Below, piece by piece: positions 33,207-45,943 of a stretch of DNA of 64,000 bases; within the stretch, counting starts at the first letter, position 1, and each line of letters opens with the position of its first letter. The notes under the pieces were generated by a model, which did not search any database, was not told where the DNA came from, and worked only from the letters and a program-made list of their open reading frames with translations. This stretch comes from an uncultured Bdellovibrionales bacterium. Its GTDB lineage: Bacteria; Patescibacteriota; Minisyncoccia; Moranbacterales; UBA1568. The position numbers and the translations under genes are program-made. The DNA is taken from positions 2,781-66,780 of the forward strand of contig CAZIZG010000007.1 of the NCBI GenBank assembly GCA_964543815.1. The letters run 5' to 3'.

Positions 33207-33911
33207 CTAGTCTCGAATCGTGACCCGACCAATCCGCGGAGTGAGCGTCCGGCACCATTCTTCCATTTCTGTCCGAGAAAAAGGATGGTATGAGGCAAAG
33301 AGCGGATTGAGGGTATGATCTGGCCGAAAGGTTTGCAGAAAATAACGTTCAGCTCCAGACAGAAGATTGGCCATACTCGAGAGCACCTCCTCCGAATGTA
33401 CTTCTTTGATAAGGGTGGTACGAAATTCATATGGAATACCCGAGTGTTTCAACAGGTTGATGCTCTGCTCGATGTTTCCGGCCTGAGCACTTCCACCCAC
33501 GAGCGTCTCATACGTCTCAAGCGAGGTCTTCACATCCAGAGCCACATAATCAACGAGCCGCTCATGAAGTAACGACCGCAGCATCTCCGGATGATTTCCA
33601 TTAGTATCAAGCTTGGTAAGGAATCCTATTTCCTTGATGCTCCGAAAAAAATCTGGGAGATCCTGCCACAGAGTCGGTTCACCGCCTGATACCACGACAC
33701 CTTCGAGAAGTCCCACTCGCTTCCTGAGAAAATTAAAGAACGTCTCCTCGGCAATAAAGCCGCCCGAGAGTTTCTGAATCTGTTCCGGCAGCACAAACTC
33801 CGGATTATGACAGAAACCACAACGCATATTACAGCCGGGAGTAAAAGCAATACAGGCTACCCTATCGGGATAATCGAGCATGGTGAATTTCTGAATAGCG
33901 GACAGCTTCAT
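33207..33911 (-). CDS. nrdG: Anaerobic ribonucleoside-triphosphate reductase activating protein (radical SAM)
   Basis: CNMRCGFCHN radical-SAM cluster motif; 234 aa. Confidence 0.9.
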   Translation of the reverse strand: MKLSAIQKFTMLDYPDRVACIAFTPGCNMRCGFCHNPEFVLPEQIQKLSGGFIAEETFFNFLRKRVGLLEGVVVSGGEPTLWQDLPDFFRSIKEIGFLTKLDTNGNHPEMLRSLLHERLVDYVALDVKTSLETYETLVGGSAQAGNIEQSINLLKHSGIPYEFRTTLIKEVHSEEVLSSMANLLSGAERYFLQTFRPDHTLNPLFASYHPFSRTEMEEWCRTLTPRIGRVTIRD

Positions 33912-33920
33912 ACGAAGAGA

Positions 33921-34124
33921 CTAGGCTGATTTACCTCCGTACCGCGCCTCAAATGAAACATTGTCTGCCACGCATTCCTCAAAGTGCTTGCGAGAATAAT
34001 GTTCCGCCTTTTTGCCGACATTGAAATGGGAGACAGGGCGATGATAGCCCATGACCCGAGTCCATACCTCACACCGAGTTCGCTTTTCATTTTGTTCTAC
34101 CTGAGACATAGATTTGTGGTTCAT
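33921..34124 (-). CDS. Stand-alone NrdD C-terminal glycyl-radical domain ORF (67 aa)
   Basis: Contains TRVMGYHRPVSHFNVGKKAE, matching the class III RNR glycyl-radical loop (RVCGY...FNAGKQEE). It starts 7 nt past the nrdD tandem stop, in a different frame. Confidence 0.65.
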   Translation of the reverse strand: MNHKSMSQVEQNEKRTRCEVWTRVMGYHRPVSHFNVGKKAEHYSRKHFEECVADNVSFEARYGGKSA

Positions 34125-34132
34125 ATGTGTTA

Positions 34133-36298
34133 TTATTTTTCAGCCTTGGCACTGGCATACGTCTTCCGATAGGCTTCATCATAGCGTTCTCCTCCGACAC
34201 CGAGCTCAGTATCACACTTGGGACAAAAATCATATTCCCCCGAAAGATATCCGTGTTTGGGACAAATGGAAAATGTCGGAGTAATAGTGATGTACGGCAA
34301 CCGATAGTGAGTGAGAATTTTTTTGACCAAGTTGCGACAGGCCTGCGGTGTTGAAATCCGTTCGGTCATATAACAGTGAAGTACCGTCCCACCCGTATAC
34401 TTTGTCTGGAGATGATCCTGAAGATCAAGCACTTCAAACACGTCATCAGTATACCCAACCGGCACCTGAGATGAGTTGGTATAGTAGGGAGCGTCCTTGG
34501 TCCCGGCCTGGAGAATATCCGGGAAGCGTTTCCTGTCTTCTTTGGCGAATCGGTAGGTTGTTCCTTCGGCTGGTGTCGCCTCCAGGTTATAGAAGTTATG
34601 CGTCTCTTCCTGAAAGGATTTAATCTTCTCCTGCATGTGTACGAGCACTTCCTCGGCAAAGGCATTCCCCCACGCGGTCGTAATATTTTCTTTGTCGTCA
34701 GTAAAGTTGCGGATAGCCTCGTTTAATCCATTTACCCCGATAGTGGAAAAATGATTCTTGAGATATCCGAGATACCGTTTGGTATAAGGAAATAGCCCTC
34801 GATCAATCCATTCTTGGATGACCTTACGTTTCAATTCGAGTGATGTCTTCCCGAGTTCCATCAAGCGGTCAATCTGAGCAAAAAACTTTTCCTTATCACC
34901 TTTGGTGAGGTAGCCAATACGGGCAGCGTTGAGCGTCACAACGCCGATTGAACCGGTCATTTCCGCTGAACCGAATAATCCTCCACCGCGTTTCCGTAGT
35001 TCCCGCAAATCAAGCTGGAGCCGACAGCACATGGAGCGGACATCACCGGGATTCAAGGTTGAATTGACGAAGTTCTGAAAGTACGGCGTCCCATACTTGG
35101 CGGTCATCTCAAACAACGGCAAATTCTTCTCACTCTCCCAATCAAAATCCTTGCCGATGTTGTAAGTGGGGATAGGAAAAGTAAACGTGCGTCCCCTGGC
35201 ATCACCCTGACTCATCACTGCGATAAAGGCCCGGTTCACGATATCCATCTCTTTCCCCAACTCTCCGAAAGTATAGGAAAATGGCTTCCCTCCAAGGATG
35301 AGCCGCTTATCCCTGAGGTCTGCCGGACAATCCCAATCAAGGGTGATGTTGGTAAACGGTGTCTGTGTTCCCCAGCGCGACGGGATATTCAAATTAAAAA
35401 TAAATGACTGGAGATTCTGATAGACATGCGCATAGACTTTATCCGCGATATACGCTTCTCGCACTTTCCGTGACGGAAATTTCATCTGATATTCCTTGAG
35501 ACTCTCCCGCAACTCGAGTTCATACTTCTTCACAAAGGGAGCCATATAGGTATCAAAGCTCGAAAATGCCTGTGCGCCCGCCCATTCGTTCTGAAGCGTC
35601 CCTAGAAAATTCACCATCTGTGAAACAGCGGAGGACAGATGTTTGGGTGGCCCCGACTCAACCTTATTGTCGACACCATTGAAACCCTCTTCGAGAAGCA
35701 CCCGGAGACTCCAGCCAGCACAATAGCCTGAGAACATATCAAGATCGTGGATATGATAATCACCATTACGATGGGCTTCACCGACACTCTTCGGATAAAT
35801 ATGGGAGAGCCAGTAATTGGCGATAACACTCCCGGCAGTATTCAGGATAAGTCCCCCGAGTGAATACCCTTGATTAGAATTAGCATTAACCCGCCAGTCC
35901 GCCCGATTGAGGTAATCCCCCACGGTTTTTTCTACCTCGACCACTACGTTCTTGTCTGCCCGAGCCTCTCGTCGTTTTTCCCGATACAAAATATAGGCCT
36001 TAGCCATCTCGGCATAGTCGAAGCGAATAAGTACGTCCTCTACTACATCCTGAATCTGTTCAACGGTGGGAATCTGCTCGCCGTACTGTTCTTCGAGAGT
36101 CACCTCTACTTCTTTGACAAGCGTCTCGACAATAACGAGGTCGCGCGCGCCGGTGGCTTCGGCCGCTTTTCGGATAGCCTCCTTGATTTTTCCCAGCTCA
36201 AAATCAACAATCGAACCATTTCGCTTCTGGACTTTGTAGAGTGGCATAAGCACCGAAATTAAAAAATGAATTTTGTCTCGCATAGTATTAAACACCAA
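34133..36298 (-). CDS. nrdD: Anaerobic ribonucleoside-triphosphate reductase large protein; ends before the glycyl-radical loop
   Basis: ATP-cone N-terminus (KRNGSIVDFELGKIKEAI), a class III RNR core, and a C-terminal CPKH...CPKC zinc site. It ends ...AKAEK with TAATAA. The true start may be the Met at 36247. Confidence 0.92.
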   Translation of the reverse strand: MVFNTMRDKIHFLISVLMPLYKVQKRNGSIVDFELGKIKEAIRKAAEATGARDLVIVETLVKEVEVTLEEQYGEQIPTVEQIQDVVEDVLIRFDYAEMAKAYILYREKRREARADKNVVVEVEKTVGDYLNRADWRVNANSNQGYSLGGLILNTAGSVIANYWLSHIYPKSVGEAHRNGDYHIHDLDMFSGYCAGWSLRVLLEEGFNGVDNKVESGPPKHLSSAVSQMVNFLGTLQNEWAGAQAFSSFDTYMAPFVKKYELELRESLKEYQMKFPSRKVREAYIADKVYAHVYQNLQSFIFNLNIPSRWGTQTPFTNITLDWDCPADLRDKRLILGGKPFSYTFGELGKEMDIVNRAFIAVMSQGDARGRTFTFPIPTYNIGKDFDWESEKNLPLFEMTAKYGTPYFQNFVNSTLNPGDVRSMCCRLQLDLRELRKRGGGLFGSAEMTGSIGVVTLNAARIGYLTKGDKEKFFAQIDRLMELGKTSLELKRKVIQEWIDRGLFPYTKRYLGYLKNHFSTIGVNGLNEAIRNFTDDKENITTAWGNAFAEEVLVHMQEKIKSFQEETHNFYNLEATPAEGTTYRFAKEDRKRFPDILQAGTKDAPYYTNSSQVPVGYTDDVFEVLDLQDHLQTKYTGGTVLHCYMTERISTPQACRNLVKKILTHYRLPYITITPTFSICPKHGYLSGEYDFCPKCDTELGVGGERYDEAYRKTYASAKAEK

Positions 36299-36353: not shown

Positions 36354-37430
36354 TTATCCAAGGTTCTTTTTCAATTTTTTCCGGGTCCGACTCAAAATGA
36401 GCTTTACCGCATTTTCAGTTTTTCCAAGTTCTGTAGCGATAGCTCGCACCTTGAGTCCATCACGATACTTGGCGAGCATCACCTGACGTTCCAGGGGCGT
36501 AAGCCCCTGAAGCAACGCTTCCAACCCAATGGTTGTTCTTGATACCTCTACCGCCGCCGATTCCTCCTGTCCGGAAAGCGCCACAAACTGGGTATGATTT
36601 TGACGATAATAATTCACGAGCACGTTGTGGGCAACCCGGATGAGATAGGTCGCATACGAAGCATTGGTTACCCGGAAAGTAGGAAGCGCCCGGAAAGCCC
36701 GAATAAACACTTCCTGAGTAAGGTCCTCAGCTAAGAGCGTATTTCCAAAAAGTCGACGGGAAAAATATTCCCGTATCGTTCCGACATACTTGGAGTACAC
36801 TTCCCCAAAGAATTCTCCCTGTTCCTGTGCCAAGGCAACAAAGAAGGCATCTTCGGTACGATCTGAAAAAAGATGCTCTGTTGGCTCAATCAGCGCCTCC
36901 TTGAAAAAACTAGCACCGTCAGTAAATCCTTCCCAAGAAAACGATGACTGAAAGAAGACGGGATTCCCGGTACTTCTTTGGCCAAGTCGCCTCAACATCC
37001 AAGAAAAAAATTGCTCGTCTTGTTTTTGTGCTTTGGTATGAGCCAAAAATTCTTGCCCAAACTGAATTTCACTCTCACGTCCCAAGAGCTCAGGATGCAC
37101 TTCGGCAAAATAACGAGTTATCCCTTCTTGGTCATGAATAGGGACAATAAAAATATGCTCATCATGTTGTACGCCATTTTTCCGAGTATTATGAACTTCG
37201 CCCACAAAAGATTGACCCTCTGCCTCAATTGTTTTCCATAATGAGGCATAAAACTTCTTACGCATTTTTCCACCCCACAATTCACCTGGTTTTTTTCCTA
37301 CAATTTCTGCTACGGAAAATCCGGTCCGCCGTTCAAGAGCAGCACTGGCATAGAGAACACGCGAATCCAAATCAGTGACCAAGAGGCCACCCGGGAGTCG
37401 ATCCAGAGTTTCTTTGAGAGGAGTCATCAT
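36354..37430 (-). CDS. PAS-domain fused to an ECF-type sigma-70 factor
   Basis: The N-terminal ~150 aa are PAS-like. The C-terminus has sigma70 region 2 (DLTQEVFIRAFRAL...YLIRVAHNVLVNYYRQ) and region 4 (LTPLERQVMLAKYRDGLKVRAIATELGKTENAVKLILSRTRKKL). Confidence 0.75.
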   Translation of the reverse strand: MMTPLKETLDRLPGGLLVTDLDSRVLYASAALERRTGFSVAEIVGKKPGELWGGKMRKKFYASLWKTIEAEGQSFVGEVHNTRKNGVQHDEHIFIVPIHDQEGITRYFAEVHPELLGRESEIQFGQEFLAHTKAQKQDEQFFSWMLRRLGQRSTGNPVFFQSSFSWEGFTDGASFFKEALIEPTEHLFSDRTEDAFFVALAQEQGEFFGEVYSKYVGTIREYFSRRLFGNTLLAEDLTQEVFIRAFRALPTFRVTNASYATYLIRVAHNVLVNYYRQNHTQFVALSGQEESAAVEVSRTTIGLEALLQGLTPLERQVMLAKYRDGLKVRAIATELGKTENAVKLILSRTRKKLKKNLG

Positions 37431-39909: not shown

Positions 39910-40800
39910 CTACTTTGAAAGCAACAACGTGAAATGACTCGTAGTAGAATCACTCCGACTCCGTATCGCATCAGCCGAGTTCCCATGTCGGAGAACTTGT
40001 ACATTTGTTGCGTCATTCTTCTGGCCGATTTGGAGCAAAGTCATTATGGCCGCTGGAGAATCCAAATGATCACTCCCAAATGAAGCAATGCGACTCACAT
40101 CATATTTTCGTATCGCTTCAAGAGTCTCGGTATCCTTACGACTAGACTCTTGTTTCGGCAGATAGTGGGAAAAATCAACTGAACTAATGATGAATACCCT
40201 GTCATCCTGTACGACCTCTTGTATATTCTCCACCAGCCGGTCAATCTCGAGCGCAGTTGTATCATGTTTGAATAGAATCGGCACGACTTTGGTACCCGGT
40301 AGAAAATGGGCGATATACGGGATAATGTTGTAAATCCCGTGTTCTTGCTGAAACGTATCTTCACGAATGACTGCGCCACCTCGCCGCACCTTTTCCAATA
40401 CAGCAGCGTCCGTCTCTACTTCCCCCTGAGCCGCCTCCCATAAGAAATGAGCGGTCTGGACATGTTCCTCACCAACTTCAAAATGATTTGGTGCCAATAG
40501 CACAATAGTCTGAGGTACCGATTGACGTTTTCCTAACTGCTCAAAAAACTCTGACAAAAATTCGTGCGCAATGAGATGATGTGGGACTACCCCGCCAATG
40601 GCATTTTCAAATGACGGGAGCCGCTCTGGATAATTGGGCACGTCAAATGGCGTATCCTCCTCTGCGAGTGGCACCTGAAAAATCACCGGGAAATCAGTGG
40701 TTTCCTCTGATACAACGCTTTGGCCATCTTCTACCATTACCAGGGTAACAAGAACAAAACCAACCATTAAAATAATACCTATCATTATTCGTACCATCAC
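39910..40800 (-). CDS. MEMO1/AmmeMemoRadiSam-system protein B-like (extradiol dioxygenase class III fold), membrane-anchored
   Basis: N-terminal TM, then GGVVPHH and the downstream His/Asp blocks typical of the Memo/LigB fold. Confidence 0.6.
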   Translation of the reverse strand: MMVRIMIGIILMVGFVLVTLVMVEDGQSVVSEETTDFPVIFQVPLAEEDTPFDVPNYPERLPSFENAIGGVVPHHLIAHEFLSEFFEQLGKRQSVPQTIVLLAPNHFEVGEEHVQTAHFLWEAAQGEVETDAAVLEKVRRGGAVIREDTFQQEHGIYNIIPYIAHFLPGTKVVPILFKHDTTALEIDRLVENIQEVVQDDRVFIISSVDFSHYLPKQESSRKDTETLEAIRKYDVSRIASFGSDHLDSPAAIMTLLQIGQKNDATNVQVLRHGNSADAIRSRSDSTTSHFTLLLSK

Positions 40801-40816: not shown

Positions 40817-43800
40817 TTACGGTCGCCTCATCAGAAACACAGCTGAAGCACCAGAAAAAAGTGCCAGCCCTGCAAGCAGTCGGATGAGTAACCAAATCTT
40901 CTCCTCATTAGCGGCACTCACGTCAATGAAGTTAGAATGTGCGCCGCTTTCCTTCTTCGGTGCGTCACTATAGACTGGAATGTGCATCCGAGTCGCTTCC
41001 GTATACGCATGCACCTCTGGTGTATACATGAGTTCTGCGTACGCTGGTGGCACAAAAAATTCACCGGCATTCACCACCCGGGCCAAATAGCTCGCCTCAT
41101 ATCGACGACTCTGTTCCCCATACGTGTAAAACGTTATGATAGCGCCATTCTCCGTATATTCGTCGACATATCCTCCATACCAGTATTGACTCTCAGAGAT
41201 GTTCCCTTGCTCATTCTTGAAATTCTGATTTACCGGCACCATACCAGCCGGGAGGATGTCCTCTGCCACCAATCGATCATGTTCATTCTTAACTCCAGTG
41301 ACAATGAGATGCACCCGGACCACATCACCAAGCGCTGGATCCGCTCCCGGGTCAGTTTTATTTTCGTACGTTCTTTGTATCGTAAGTCCATGACTCTCAC
41401 CGGGAAAGGTATCGGTTACCCGAGCAACATTCTGTCTGACGGATGAATACAAATCGCCCTCTCCATCATAAGAAACTTGAATTATCGAGCCCTCCTTCTT
41501 GATTGCGCTCCCGGGTACTGTATAGCTTTTATTTTCCAAAATTGAAGTCATTCTGCCGCTCTCCAGTGTTTCCCCATCTAATCGGAGACTGTATTCATAA
41601 TTGGGATTCTCCACGACATTTCGCTTTGAGAAATCAATGAGCGCCCGGATAACCTGGGCAGTCGCAAAGGTATTGGACCAGTACCCTGCTTTCCGACTAG
41701 CAGCCAATGATCGTACCATGGGCACAAGCACCTTCTGATCATACTGCGCCATCACGAGCGCCCGGATAGCAAGTGCCGTCGACGCATCTTGTGAAGCATA
41801 GTAATTGATATCCCCTCTTTCCCAATACTGGAGACCACTGTCATCAACTATTAATTTTCCCATGAGAGCATCGACGCCATTTTTAGAATTATCGTTCACC
41901 CCAATTCGGATATTCGTCATCACTGCCAAAGACAGTAACTCCGGAGTGAGTTGAGTAAAACTTGGGATGAGCTTCCCTTCTTGTACCTCATCTTTACTCA
42001 CAAGCATGCCCAGAAGAGACTTGGCGTAAGCGAGCGAAACCAGTGGTATGAAGTCGTTCTCTCCAGTATTAACGCTGTATGGCAAGGCGGCTGTTTTTTG
42101 ACGACCCTTCACCGCCTCGCTAGAAGCATTCTCGACATACGTTCTCGCTTTGGCAAGCATGATGGCAATATCATCTGGAAGTATTCCAAGCGAGCGAGCC
42201 TCAATCAGATACTCGATGACATAGCTGGTAATATAGGGATTACTTTCGCCGCCGTTCCAAAACCCCCAGGCTCCCTGATCATTCTGAAGTTCCTTCAAAT
42301 GACGGATACCGACCTCGAGCATTTTCGTCGTCTCTTTCCCTTCAAGGGCCTTGGCAAAAATTCCTCTCTCTCGACTCGCAATCACTAACGGAACAAAACG
42401 ACTCGTCGTCTGCTCAACACAGCCGTAAGGATAATCAATGAGACCTCGCATAGCAGTTGGAATTGTTCCGAGAAGCGATGGTGACACGTCAACCGTAATA
42501 TCCGTCCGTGACCGATCGGCATCGTCAGGAAGAAGAATGTGATACTCCGCATTACCATCCAAAGCTTGCGATGACTTTTGCATAAAGCCTGGTGCCCGAA
42601 TAGGAAGCGTCCGTACAATGGCATCAGCATACTTTTCATCCCGTCCGGGAACAGTTGCTCGAACCTGGAAAGTAGCTCGTTCATTGATTGTTTCTGGTAG
42701 AAACGAGAAGACTACTTCCTCTGAGTCCATCGATGATACCGATACTGAACGTTCCGGTCCATCAGATATCACTCCGTCGGAAAAAGTACCTTTGACCAAA
42801 AAATCCAGTGACTCCTCGGTATTATTGCGAACCGTTACTTTTACCTCCACTCGATCACCAACCCGCATCAGTGTCGGAAGAGCCTCACTCACCAAAACAT
42901 TTTTAGACACCGAGATTTCTTGACGAGCCTGACCAAACTGGGTAGCTCCCGCGGTGGCAATACCAGAAATCACCCAGGTCGTGGTGTTATCAGGCAAGCG
43001 GAAGGTCACTCGTGCCCGTCCATCTTCACCAAGATGTACTCGAGGATTCCAGTAAGCAGTATCTTTGAAGACTGACCTGGTCCCATCTTTATCATTATGT
43101 ACCCAAACACCAGAAGCAAAATACGTGTGGTACCCCTCAATCGTAAGATTGTAAACTGTTGTTTTTTCCCGAACAAACGAAATATCCTTAACCGGTATAT
43201 CACGGCCCTCTCGATTACGTAGTACATCACCTATTTGAACGTCTCCTGCTGCCCCCCAAGTACCATTCACAAACAATTTGTGTTCTGGTGTGACACGAAT
43301 ATTGCCGTTCAGTATCAGGTAGCCATCAACATCAAGAGCATGTACCGCCCCAACACGAGCCTCCACTAGGGAACCATCCGCTTCGCTTTCTCGAGTCAGT
43401 ACGACATCGCCGACACGAACATCAGAAATCACCTTCATTCCACCTGGCATCAAAACAGGGGTATCACCAACAAAACATCCACCCATCTCAGCCAAATTCA
43501 ACGTAAACAGCACCCCCTCAAGGGAATGAGCAGAAACCGTACTGTGAAAGCGCTTATTCCAAAACGTTTTGAATATATCGGCAGGTGCCTGATTCAATAA
43601 CTCAAACAATGCCTTGTCGATAGCCCAGACGGCCACCTCACCCGCTACTGGTTTCCCCGATTCGTCTTTTCCAATGACTTCGAGCGATACTGTTTCTCCT
43701 GGTTCGTACTGTTTCTTATCGGAACGCAACTCAACCGCGATACGCTTGGATTCAGCACTGACTGCTATCTCTGTCGTTTCAGTCACCAACGTTGTCGGTG

Positions 43801-45943
43801 AAAACATTGTACCCGAAACAAAGATATTCGGCATATCACCCTCTTCCAGAGGAACATCGAGCGAGACCGTGTTTCCACGAAGCGCCACTACCTGTGAACG
43901 GTGTACTCCGGCTCGTTCAAATGACAACCACACATCACGATTGGTAAGTGGAGAGGTAATCAATACTTTAGCTTTCTCCTGAGGGAGATAGCTTTCTTTA
44001 TCTGTTTTGAGAGTAATGAGTGTCCCGCCGTTTTCGTCCGCTTGGTAAAACCAGCCATTTTGATCACTGGCCCAGACATACACCACACGAGAGATAGTAT
44101 TCCCTCTATCGTCCTTTCCAAAAAGAGTAAGGCTATAACTCCCCTCTTCGTCTGGTACAAAGTGCAGTGTAGCTTGCCCTTTTTCATCTGTAACTACCTC
44201 CATCTCAGTTAAATCCTTTTCAACGACCCGGTAATATGGATATTTTTCCGACGGTGAATCGTTCACCCAACGCCGATGGTGGACCTTGACCGAAAGCGTA
44301 CGTCCAGCCAAGGTAATCCCCTCCCGGTTAGCAACCAACTGAAGTACATTCTCACTCGCTTCTCCTACCCGAGTACCGTATGAGTACCCGCGTTGATATA
44401 TTGAGAAGTCTCCAGGCAAAACCAACACATTACGACTCTCATATACTGGATTTTCCTCACTATCCTTGCTGGTGATTTCAACATGGTACACTTGAGGAGA
44501 GAAATTCTGATGTGGATGAGTCGGTAAAGCTAGGTGATACTTTCCAGCAGCATCCAAAGTAATCTCGCCCTTGGTAACACTTGGCCCGTACCATCCGCCA
44601 TACCGATACTCATCATCAACAAATTCGCGATCTGGCAAATACGCGTAATCATAGTATGTCCCGGTCGTCACATTATATTCTACGGTTTTTCCAACGGTTG
44701 GTTCACCAGAAAAAAATGATCCCGAAAAATCAAGCTCGAGAGTATCACCCACAATCAGCCGATCATGTGGCGTACTAATATCCAGCCCAAACTCCGGCTT
44801 TCGGTATTGGTCGACACTGAATGTAGCGTCAGCCATACTGTAAAAATATTGGTTTCCCTTACTCAAGTTTCCATACGAAATGGAGTAGAAATACTCTCCT
44901 AGCTTGGCATCTTTCGGTACCACAAAACTACCATCTACGGCACCCGTCTCCGTGATAGTCTGGGTTTTTTCAAAAATAACTTTCTCACTCTCACCCCAGC
45001 CAGTCCAGACCTTTACTTTCGCAAGTCCCTGTGGCAACACGTATCGGGCATCATCATCCTGGCGGACGATACTCTTGTAATACACCGTATCCCCAGGTTG
45101 ATACAGCATGCGATCAGTGAAAGAGTATGACTTAGCAAGCGGAGCGTACGGCGCAAATTTTCCACCCCACCAGCCATACGACGATGTCGGCTGCGGAACA
45201 TGCGATGCGTAATTGAGCGGCACAAACGCGAGTTCCCCCTGGGAACGAACCAGAACAATATCACCCTCATCAGACTGCGGGACTCTGGCCAATCCCTGAC
45301 TATCTATACTGGAACGCCCCAACTCCTTCTTCTTTTTGTAGAACTGATATTCTGCGACATCACCACTCGTCACGTGTTTACCCGTACGGCTATCTACGGT
45401 CCAGATAACAAGATTTTTTCCTTCTTCTTTCGCTTGAGCCGCAATATTACTAGCTACGAGCAACATCTCTCCTTTTCGTCCTCCCAGGCTTCCCTCCAAA
45501 TAATAAGTCCCGGCCGTTTTGATAGGAAGAGAGACTCTTGTTCGCTCACTGCTAACAGTAACTTCAACTGACAAATCTGCTGTTTCCTTTAATGATTCCT
45601 TCTTTATTGGAAAGGGTCGCAACTTGACCGAGGAATAATTGTTGGCGTCTCTCTTTTCTGAATAAACCAGCGCATCCAAAAATTGCGTCTCAGAAATGGC
45701 ATAGAGTTTCAGATGTGCCACTCCGGCTTCGGGAGCGCCCAGCCACACGACTTGTTCTTCACTCATCGTCCGAGCCATCACACCTCCAAATTCATACCCC
45801 TTTTCATCAGCAAAAAATGCTAAAAAATCTTTTTCTGACATCTCCTGGGCTTCCACAGTCACTGATGAACCATTCAGCACCAACACACAACAAAAAATCC
45901 CAACGCCAAGCAGGGACCGAAAAATATTTTTATTCCAAAACAT
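40817..45943 (-). CDS. Secreted alpha-2-macroglobulin-like thioester protein with inserted Hint (intein-like) domain
   Basis: 1708 aa with a signal peptide and many MG-like beta-sandwich regions. The thioester motif GCVEQ is at 42410-42424. The Hint domain C-F-V-G-D...V-H-N lies at 43094-43477. The C-terminus has a hydrophobic helix plus RRP. Confidence 0.85.
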   Translation of the reverse strand: MFWNKNIFRSLLGVGIFCCVLVLNGSSVTVEAQEMSEKDFLAFFADEKGYEFGGVMARTMSEEQVVWLGAPEAGVAHLKLYAISETQFLDALVYSEKRDANNYSSVKLRPFPIKKESLKETADLSVEVTVSSERTRVSLPIKTAGTYYLEGSLGGRKGEMLLVASNIAAQAKEEGKNLVIWTVDSRTGKHVTSGDVAEYQFYKKKKELGRSSIDSQGLARVPQSDEGDIVLVRSQGELAFVPLNYASHVPQPTSSYGWWGGKFAPYAPLAKSYSFTDRMLYQPGDTVYYKSIVRQDDDARYVLPQGLAKVKVWTGWGESEKVIFEKTQTITETGAVDGSFVVPKDAKLGEYFYSISYGNLSKGNQYFYSMADATFSVDQYRKPEFGLDISTPHDRLIVGDTLELDFSGSFFSGEPTVGKTVEYNVTTGTYYDYAYLPDREFVDDEYRYGGWYGPSVTKGEITLDAAGKYHLALPTHPHQNFSPQVYHVEITSKDSEENPVYESRNVLVLPGDFSIYQRGYSYGTRVGEASENVLQLVANREGITLAGRTLSVKVHHRRWVNDSPSEKYPYYRVVEKDLTEMEVVTDEKGQATLHFVPDEEGSYSLTLFGKDDRGNTISRVVYVWASDQNGWFYQADENGGTLITLKTDKESYLPQEKAKVLITSPLTNRDVWLSFERAGVHRSQVVALRGNTVSLDVPLEEGDMPNIFVSGTMFSPTTLVTETTEIAVSAESKRIAVELRSDKKQYEPGETVSLEVIGKDESGKPVAGEVAVWAIDKALFELLNQAPADIFKTFWNKRFHSTVSAHSLEGVLFTLNLAEMGGCFVGDTPVLMPGGMKVISDVRVGDVVLTRESEADGSLVEARVGAVHALDVDGYLILNGNIRVTPEHKLFVNGTWGAAGDVQIGDVLRNREGRDIPVKDISFVREKTTVYNLTIEGYHTYFASGVWVHNDKDGTRSVFKDTAYWNPRVHLGEDGRARVTFRLPDNTTTWVISGIATAGATQFGQARQEISVSKNVLVSEALPTLMRVGDRVEVKVTVRNNTEESLDFLVKGTFSDGVISDGPERSVSVSSMDSEEVVFSFLPETINERATFQVRATVPGRDEKYADAIVRTLPIRAPGFMQKSSQALDGNAEYHILLPDDADRSRTDITVDVSPSLLGTIPTAMRGLIDYPYGCVEQTTSRFVPLVIASRERGIFAKALEGKETTKMLEVGIRHLKELQNDQGAWGFWNGGESNPYITSYVIEYLIEARSLGILPDDIAIMLAKARTYVENASSEAVKGRQKTAALPYSVNTGENDFIPLVSLAYAKSLLGMLVSKDEVQEGKLIPSFTQLTPELLSLAVMTNIRIGVNDNSKNGVDALMGKLIVDDSGLQYWERGDINYYASQDASTALAIRALVMAQYDQKVLVPMVRSLAASRKAGYWSNTFATAQVIRALIDFSKRNVVENPNYEYSLRLDGETLESGRMTSILENKSYTVPGSAIKKEGSIIQVSYDGEGDLYSSVRQNVARVTDTFPGESHGLTIQRTYENKTDPGADPALGDVVRVHLIVTGVKNEHDRLVAEDILPAGMVPVNQNFKNEQGNISESQYWYGGYVDEYTENGAIITFYTYGEQSRRYEASYLARVVNAGEFFVPPAYAELMYTPEVHAYTEATRMHIPVYSDAPKKESGAHSNFIDVSAANEEKIWLLIRLLAGLALFSGASAVFLMRRP
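43094..43477 (-). other. Hint / bacterial intein-like (BIL) domain embedded in the A2M-like protein (residues ~823-950)
   Basis: Starts CFVGDTPVLMPGG, contains a TPEHKLF block, and ends GVWVHN followed by D (not Cys, Ser or Thr). Confidence 0.7.

Follow-up and report, generated by a model that had tools for sequence, protein, structure and literature searches.

The 64,000-nucleotide stretch of contig CAZIZG010000007.1 analysed here (the window) encodes, between positions 40817 and 45943, a secreted protein of the alpha-2-macroglobulin (A2M) family in which a Hint domain of the type-A bacterial intein-like (BIL) kind is embedded at the position of the bait region. The domain has the Hint fold, its catalytic residues are invariant among relatives, and the residue that follows it (+1) is not a nucleophile. 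The Hint has diverged together with its host protein, and the architecture is spread widely over the candidate phyla radiation (CPR/Patescibacteria). An earlier reading of the window made from the sequence alone (the sequence-only reading) had called an open reading frame (ORF) of 1708 amino acids (aa) at these coordinates, which holds. It gave no strand; the gene lies on the minus strand, and the plus strand of the same segment is stop-ridden in translation.

A Hint domain embedded in an A2M-family protein

The main features of the gene and its product are listed below, where conservation counts refer to 168 representatives of the Hint-bearing relatives, clustered at 50% identity. MG denotes a macroglobulin-like domain, TED the thioester-containing domain, and AF2 the AlphaFold2 model, with its predicted local distance difference test score (pLDDT).

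40817..45943, minus strand: whole gene for the A2M-family thioester protein with embedded Hint; ATG start, 1708 aa, stop codon included (ORF list and translation)
43598..44017, minus strand: bait-region domain, Pfam A2M_BRD, residues 643-782 (E 4.7e-17)
43478..43537, minus strand: disordered bait-like linker, residues 803-822, VSAHSLEGVLFTLNLAEMGG, ending in Gly-Gly before Cys1 (from AF2 pLDDT)
43094..43477, minus strand: Hint domain, type-A BIL-like, C823-N950, 128 aa, starting CFVGDTPVLM and ending VWVHN950
43475..43477, minus strand: Cys823, the Hint Cys1, predicted nucleophile of an N-S acyl shift at G822/C823 (168/168)
43280..43291, minus strand: block B, T885-P-E-H888 (TxxH), then KLF (Thr 167/168, His 168/168)
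43094..43099, minus strand: terminal H949-N950 (block G), Asn cyclization site for the predicted C-terminal cleavage (both 168/168)
43088..43093, minus strand: +1 Asp951, a non-nucleophile, and +2 Lys952, nearly invariant (Lys in 165/168)
42800..43060, minus strand: post-bait MG domain, Pfam A2M, residues 962-1048 (E 6.4e-19)
42410..42424, minus strand: predicted thioester motif G1174-C1175-V-E-Q1178 in the TED, within Pfam TED_complement (1160-1252)
41015..41389, minus strand: C-terminal MG domain, bMG10, residues 1519-1643 (E 9.7e-20)

Since an identical protein was present on 11 contigs of independent assemblies, the architecture is not an assembly artefact or chimera. Pfam models matched in the order MG2 (272-356), A2M_BRD, PT-HINT (834-951), A2M, TED_complement and bMG10. 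The MG2, A2M_BRD, A2M and bMG10 matches all exceeded the Pfam cut-offs, which establishes the MG chain of the A2M fold. An AF2 model covering residues 560-1660 (pLDDT 85) was compared by Foldseek; its best matches were the Salmonella A2M 4U48 (E 2e-43) and native E. coli ECAM 5A42 (E 3e-43), followed by eukaryotic A2M, TEP1, CD109 and C3/C5. The protein is thus a bacterial A2M, with MG domains, a thioester motif, a signal peptide and a C-terminal membrane helix. Pfam and Foldseek agree here with the sequence-only reading, which had recognized the family from a GCVEQ near residue 1175. This motif provides the CxEQ signature of the family and its predicted thioester bond, and is kept in 124 of 141 full-length Hint-bearing relatives. 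Outside the leader, the protein has two cysteines, C823 of the Hint and C1175 of the TED, and both are predicted thioester sites. The ELMY at residue 1637 in bMG10 matches the ExMY motif, the role of which in ECAM has been described (PMC4498604).

The sequence-only reading had also delimited a Hint module of about 128 aa, from a Cys through TPEHKLF to VWVHN and about 220 residues N-terminal to the thioester; the domain was recovered as C823-N950, with the thioester motif 224 residues downstream. The best-scoring Pfam model for this segment was PT-HINT (E 1.8e-12; 48.1 bits against a gathering cut-off of 27.7). Weaker matches were obtained with Intein_splicing, Vint, Hint and Hint_2, among which Intein_splicing matched in its C-terminal part (30.9 bits, below its cut-off of 35.8) and the Hedgehog-type Hint model scored 14.6 bits (below its cut-off of 29.7). 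The NCBIfam intein_Cterm model matched residues 930-950. In the PDB the best match by sequence was 2LWY (E 2e-7, end to end), and the HN that ends the Hint of the query lined up with that of 2LWY and with TIGR01443. Because 2LWY is the best match by sequence and BIL domains are the nearest by fold, the insert is a genuine Hint domain whose closest characterized relatives are the type-A BIL domains. The BIL-like identity supposed from the sequence is therefore borne out; neither an ordinary MG-domain insertion nor a +1 nucleophile gained through a different alignment fits, for both the Hint similarity and the HN boundary hold.

Two features define type-A BIL domains, a His-Asn at the end and no nucleophile at +1; these domains form a thioester at the N-terminus and cleave at the C-terminus through Asn cyclization, and their products are mostly those of cleavage, with some ligation when the freed amine attacks the thioester (PMC4031507). 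The segment C823-N950 has the Hint fold, Cys1, TxxH, the terminal His-Asn and no nucleophile at +1, and is thus predicted to be an autoprocessing domain of this type.

Position of the Hint at the bait site

Profile searches and structure prediction together place the Hint between A2M_BRD with its disordered linker and the next MG domain. Residues 803-821 form the sole long stretch of the AF2 model with pLDDT below 50, and the model thus predicts an exposed, disordered bait between the bait-region domain and the MG domain that follows. Across 153 relatives the linker has a median length of 19 residues (range 17-28) and is conserved at S807 (99%), A818/E819 (70-74%), G821 (95%) and G822 (100%). 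Classical A2M baits are hypervariable, so a linker this short and partly conserved is unusual.

Comparison with a relative that lacks the Hint gave clean insertion boundaries. In the family alignment the query reads ...AEMGG/C...HN/DKDG-TRSVFKDTAYWNP at the insertion, whereas the Hint-less P0025 reads ...AEMGG-GGGGADIRSVFKDAAYWNP; that is, AEMGG/Hint/xKGG against AEMGGGGGGAD. Chloroflexi A2Ms have a similar Gly-rich loop at the site. The post-bait MG domain is preceded by an invariant R956..F..D-x-A-Y-W-N-P motif, the P0025 version of which aligns to human A2M from residue 731, as does its IRSVF motif; the bait of human A2M spans residues 690-728. From residue 953 the query is aligned with C5 from residue 763, just past C5a, which ends at residue 751; the post-bait MG region corresponds to C5 763-865. 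Since the alignments to Hint-less relatives, human A2M and C5 agree, the Hint is placed at the bait position, as the sequence-only reading had it, and by these alignments at the C-terminal end of the bait region, in the slot occupied by the anaphylatoxin domain in complement proteins.

Conservation of the catalytic residues and of the +1 and +2 positions

In addition to the invariant Cys1, block B His and terminal His-Asn, the 168 representatives keep Gly at -1 (168/168) and -2 (160/168), Phe at Hint position 2 (166/168) and the Asn of the VYNL motif (167/168). As far as the alignment can tell, every residue needed for the cleavage chemistry of type-A BIL domains is invariant in the family of the query. 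The +1 residue was Gln in 58 representatives, Asp in 53, Glu in 19, Asn in 15, Gly in 13, Ser in 5, Lys in 3, Leu in 1 and Ala in 1. Cys and Thr were found in none of the 168, and 163 were non-nucleophilic; the Asp at +1 that had been pointed out from the sequence (D951) thus reflects a property of the family rather than a quirk of one protein. With no Cys or Thr at +1, and Ser there in only 5 representatives, the domain is not a canonical intein. The Lys at +2 is not present in the Hint-less relatives in the family alignment.

Distribution and inheritance of the architecture

A word-indexed search returned some 25 clusters that share the architecture, the most distant at 27% identity. An exhaustive profile search was made with the BRD-Hint-MG region (residues 700-1050) against 1.84 billion representatives. 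Nearly all of its best 150 matches ran over the full length of the profile without a break (about 350 residues), and hence contained the Hint, and the weakest of these 150 still had an E value of 3e-91. No fewer than 168 cluster representatives carry the A2M-Hint architecture, as do over 70 genomes at the species level. Scanning genomes, one for each species, gave at least 576 relatives, with the Hint present in about 75 of the best 79 loci. A word-indexed search with the Hint and its flanks (167 aa) gave no match, which reflects the limit of the index for short queries and is not evidence of absence. Some relatives carry the automatic UniProt name 'Intein C-terminal splicing domain-containing protein'.

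The sources include Moraniibacteriota, Magasanikiibacteriota, Doudnabacteria, WWE3/Katanobacteria and Peribacteria, together with the Microgenomates groups Davies-, Ames-, Woese-, Shapiro-, Levyi-, Blackburn- and Pacebacteria, and all checkable source names of Hint-bearing A2Ms belong to CPR. Many loci (L013-L015, L019, L021, L026, L031, L033 and others) come from records that bear the labels Gammaproteobacteria, Pseudomonadales, Bdellovibrionales, Nevskiaceae, Limnocylindrales or Micavibrio. The topoisomerase I adjoining L033 ('Micavibrio') was 81-92% identical to Parcubacteria/Moraniibacteriota proteins, and every named match was from Patescibacteria. A presence outside CPR was rejected on the strength of this one tested record, and the non-CPR labels were treated as mislabels; the NCBI labels of these third-party-annotation metagenome-assembled genomes look unreliable.

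The Hint and its host have similar histories. Mean pairwise identity was 0.44 for the Hint and 0.43 for the flanks, and the two co-varied (Mantel r 0.43, reached by 0 of 999 permutations), with no pair among the relatives compared having an anomalously similar Hint relative to its flanks. When the Hint by itself and the Hint-free remainder of the host were each used for a neighbour-joining tree, the same clades were recovered, including the distant WWE3-type subfamily and the subfamily without a transmembrane (TM) helix. This co-variation and the shared clades argue for long purifying selection and not for recent mobility. The GC content of the Hint is 0.461 against 0.475 in the rest of the gene; at 0.344, the GC content at third codon positions (GC3) is lower in its coding segment (43094-43477, minus strand) than anywhere else in the gene (mean 0.442, sd 0.047, 384-nt windows). 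With normal GC, a mildly low GC3 and no outliers in Hint-over-flank identity, a recent horizontal insertion was rejected.

Two Hint-less CPR proteins, P0025 and L079, group together inside the main Hint-bearing clade, and this nesting suggests that their Hint-less state is a secondary loss. Because these relatives show the Gly-rich loop to be dispensable, retention of the Hint is not forced in the way that retention of an active-site intein is. Judged from these comparisons, the Hint is ancient, vertically inherited and under purifying selection on its catalysis, in a loop that tolerates its loss. The pattern suggests domestication over a selfish intein.

Among the 141 full-length Hint-bearing representatives, 17, in two subclades, have no CxEQ at the aligned position and keep an intact Hint with all of its catalytic residues (P0253, P0260, P0261, P0270, P0275, P0276, P0295, P0301, P0306-P0308 and P0311-P0316). 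In the second of these subclades the C-terminal TM helix is missing too, and the proteins close with a conserved ...YYQPKTSIVFPxLGII..EK. Closely related Hint domains, 3-8 of them standing head to tail and spaced by only K-G, K-G-G or K-G-G-G (...VHN-KGG-CF...), make up arrays in P0281, P0302 and P0304 (also in P0285 and P0300), and P0281 has a Tim44-like domain as well.

A proposed role in bait-site cleavage and its alternatives

To our knowledge, all characterized A2M, complement and TEP proteins are switched on by another enzyme that cuts the bait or anaphylatoxin region. Our proposal, which we hold tentatively and at somewhat less than even chances, is that the Hint is a domesticated module of the type-A BIL/PT-HINT class that cuts the bait site from within, without an outside protease, and so primes or fires the A2M switch. 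The protein would be exported by Sec and would fold outside the cell. Cys823, aided by T885 and H888, would turn the G822-C823 peptide bond into a thioester, and N950, aided by H949, would cyclize and cut the N950-D951 bond. The branched intermediate could not be formed, because there is no Cys, Ser or Thr at +1. The single-chain precursor would thereby become two chains: an N-terminal chain with the MG domains up to the bait, and a membrane-anchored C-terminal chain with MG, CUB, TED and the C-terminal MG domain. The disordered bait linker of about 20 residues would be left untethered. In ECAM, the conformational switch is set off by untethering of the bait, upon which the C-terminal MG domain lets go of the TED (PMC4498604). 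The Hint would then be a built-in substitute for bait proteolysis, or for the convertase/furin step of C3/C4/C5. The cleavage itself, the identity of the products and the activation or priming of the A2M are inferred.

Several points weigh against this proposal. The role of the Hint is not strictly dependent on the thioester, and arming of the thioester is not its whole function, because the 17 CxEQ-less relatives have kept the Hint; the sequence-only reading had suggested that self-cleavage arms or releases the thioester half, and of this we still infer the self-cleavage but do not retain arming as a full account. The CxEQ-less relatives are compatible with a role of the Hint as trigger of the conformational switch; family members without a thioester, C5 among them, go through this switch too. 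An exposed thioester does not last long, and to fire it constitutively, with no cue as a gate, seems wasteful. The nested P0025 and L079 show that the A2M works without the Hint, which fits a harmless splicing passenger equally well. Finally, simple cleavage does not account for the near-invariant Lys at +2.

That the Hint is such a passenger we consider rather unlikely. The freed alpha-amine of D951 would attack the Gly822 thioester and restore an ordinary A2M in one chain, the bait of which, about 25 residues long, an outside protease must still cut, and the Hint would be an old element without a regulatory role, retained because it is hard to lose. Type-A BIL domains are able to splice without a +1 nucleophile (PMC4031507), and 2LWY, the closest match by sequence, has been studied for ligation without nucleophilic side chains, as the reference list of the same paper indicates. 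The predicted product, AEMGG-DKDGTRSVF, is much like the loop of the Hint-less P0025 (AEMGGGGGGADIRSVF), and the nested Hint-less relatives show the two states to be interchangeable. In characterized type-A BIL domains, however, cleavage outweighs splicing (PMC4031507). Moreover, with a dispensable Gly-rich loop and no homing endonuclease, nothing obvious blocks loss of the element, yet its catalytic residues are invariant in at least 168 divergent clusters. Selection has kept Cys and Thr out of the +1 position, although one mutation would give efficient splicing, and the linker and the +2 Lys are conserved beyond what a passenger needs.

It is unlikely, too, that the domain is a conjugation device in which an amine resolves the Gly-Gly/Cys thioester into an isopeptide, whether the amine is that of Lys952 (a branched 'isopeptide splice') or one on a target or the envelope, and which would serve as a second covalent warhead beside the TED thioester. 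A precedent exists in the BIL2 of BUBL, the top structural match of the Hint, which makes a Lys isopeptide (PMC8616854). The structural similarity to BIL2 is, however, not above that to 2LWY or to ordinary inteins, and no ubiquitin-like domain lies upstream of the Hint in the query. Many Hint domains, those of Hedgehog among them, have Gly at -1, and Lys952/Gly953 are equally well explained as structural residues or as contacts of the C-terminal MG domain after release. No acceptor can be identified from the sequence.

An extension of the bait-cleavage proposal, decidedly unlikely in its full form, would make the protein a relative of complement in its action, but one that fires by itself and needs no protease. 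The TED thioester would be freed when the protein processes itself at the bait site, perhaps in response to a cue, and a second, Gly-Gly thioester might be passed to a Lys, as in BUBL BIL2. CPR episymbionts would use such a molecule to attach covalently to, or to tag, the surfaces of host or other cells, and not to trap proteases.

It is very improbable that the Hint is catalytically dead and acts as a globular spacer or as a folded bait for outside proteases. Folded domains do occur at the same position in relatives, such as the anaphylatoxin domain of C3/C4/C5, but a dead domain would not keep its catalytic residues, and here those for thioester formation and Asn cyclization are invariant in 168 of 168 (167 for the block B Thr) amid variable surroundings. 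A conventional mobile mini-intein that splices through a +1 nucleophile is scarcely credible: the sub-threshold match to the C-terminal part of Intein_splicing, the match to TIGR01443 and the +1 Ser in 5 of 168 relatives speak for it, but the query has Asp at +1, the alignment to 2LWY and TIGR01443 fixes the HN boundary with the nearest Thr and Ser (T955, S957) 5-7 residues downstream, the 128-aa domain has no endonuclease, the insertion is in a variable Gly-rich loop and not at a conserved site, and the Hint co-diverges with its host. A canonical class 1 intein was ruled out on the same grounds, namely the +1 statistics, the insertion site, the missing endonuclease and the co-divergence; inteins of that class sit at conserved functional sites of their hosts, are sporadic and mobile in distribution and often carry a homing endonuclease.

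If the proposed bait-site cleavage takes place, a Hint with intact cleavage chemistry, fixed at the switch point across a very large bacterial radiation, suggests a switch that is thrown from within. This would be a new activation logic for the thioester-protein superfamily. It would also give BIL domains, the biology of which is poorly understood, a clear and abundant host function, and it would point to a conserved surface protein possibly relevant to the dealings of CPR episymbionts with hosts or proteases. A self-activating covalent-capture scaffold for protein engineering is a possible yield. In its self-firing form the protein would give bacteria, by autocatalysis, an equivalent of C3 activation, and intein chemistry would have a new use in nature.

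Comparison with known systems

Both modules are of known kinds, which is not so of their combination at the bait site or of the logic that it implies. No description of the A2M-Hint architecture or its function was found in the literature (subscription-only papers not covered), in keeping with the suspicion of the sequence-only reading that it was undescribed. In comparison with type-A BIL domains such as the C. thermocellum BIL (2LWY), the domain described here sits in the activation (bait) loop of a host that belongs to the A2M thioester proteins. It is conserved vertically across a phylum-level radiation rather than sporadically, and the +2 Lys is nearly invariant. The PT-HINT domains of polymorphic toxins lie before the C-terminal toxin module, which they are thought to release; the same model (PF07591) matches here, but MG-CUB-TED-MG and a membrane anchor follow in place of a toxin. 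Unlike BUBL1 BIL2 of Tetrahymena thermophila (6TMM), the domain described here is bacterial and extracellular, has no ubiquitin-like domain upstream, and any conjugation by it is hypothetical. Hedgehog/Hog Hint domains (1AT0) are followed by a sterol-recognition region and have no terminal His-Asn, whereas the Hint of the query ends in His-Asn and is followed directly by an MG domain.

With ECAM/YfhM (5A42) and the Salmonella SaA2M (4U48) the protein shares the overall fold, CxEQ, a disordered bait and an ExMY-type motif (ELMY 1637), at only 15-16% identity. Unlike theirs, the bait of the query is short, is held to a narrow range of lengths, shows partial conservation and has a Hint after it. 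ECAM/YfhM has an N-terminal lipid anchor and pbpC as its partner gene; the query has a signal peptide with a C-terminal TM helix and a Memo-like partner, and a penicillin-binding-protein (PBP)-like glycosyltransferase lies upstream in only four related loci. The lipoprotein anchor and the pbpC partner are traits of an enterobacterial subgroup and not of the superfamily. Complement C3/C4/C5 have, like the query, a folded domain inserted at the equivalent point of the chain, and its removal by cleavage is the activating event. There the domain has the anaphylatoxin fold and is cut by convertase or furin, whereas here it is a Hint and the cleavage would be autocatalytic.

Leader and C-terminal anchor

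45845..45943, minus strand: signal peptide/hydrophobic leader, residues ~1-33, MFWNKNIFRSLLGVGIFCCVLVLNGSSVTVEA/QE (read from the sequence; predicted cleavage site)
40829..40897, minus strand: C-terminal TM anchor, residues 1683-1705, then RRP (hydrophobic helix and basic residues)

An N-terminal hydrophobic segment was found in 115 of 141 full-length relatives, and on inspection the leader of the 1708-aa protein contained no canonical lipobox. The protein ends in ...EEKIWLLIRLLAGLALFSGASAVFLMRRP, with the anchor segment reading IWLLIRLLAGLALFSGASAVFLM-RRP. A hydrophobic score was obtained within the last 45 residues in 82 of the 141, and in most main-clade relatives the helix is followed by a basic stop-transfer sequence and then by a cytoplasmic tail of variable length. 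The sequence-only reading had taken the C-terminus for a sorting signal. A sortase- or exosortase-type signal was rejected, as no NCBIfam sorting-domain model (LPXTG, PEP-CTERM or similar) matched and the relatives have a TM helix with variable tails; the segment is a plain TM anchor with a basic stop-transfer sequence.

Gene neighbourhood

39910..40800, minus strand: membrane-anchored Memo-like protein, 296 aa, with an N-terminal hydrophobic helix (Pfam Memo, E 1.5e-21), separated from the A2M gene by a 16-bp gap

The Memo-like gene follows the A2M gene. Of the 60 related loci that have a gene downstream, 37 have a member of the Memo-like cluster next to the A2M gene (+1) on the same strand, and about 41 have one at +1 or +2; the cluster also takes in PGA_cap-type proteins through one fusion. 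About 10 loci have a PGA_cap (CapA-like) gene nearby, at position -1 or +2. The two kinds appear to be joined in one 545-aa protein of L052, the PGA_cap half being assigned by Pfam and the Memo-like half from the clustering. Because the Hint-less L079 has the same neighbours as the Hint-bearing loci, these genes are a trait of the CPR A2M clade rather than of the Hint. The A2M and its Memo-like/PGA_cap neighbours may form a conserved CPR surface module. In L058 and three more loci a PBP-like glycosyltransferase (about 820 aa, recognized by sequence motif only) is encoded just upstream, which echoes the yfhM-pbpC pairing.

The flanking genes are otherwise of the housekeeping kind: rhodanese-like, arginyl-tRNA synthetase, IF3, SmpB, NrdD and isoleucyl-tRNA synthetase. 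Positions 36354-37430 (minus strand) encode a 358-aa protein with an N-terminal PAS domain and sigma-70 regions 2 and 4, which may be a fusion of a sensor and a sigma factor. At 33207-36298 (minus strand), NrdD (721 aa, with an ATP-cone) adjoins a radical-SAM activase-like gene, an arrangement consistent with an anaerobic CPR lifestyle.

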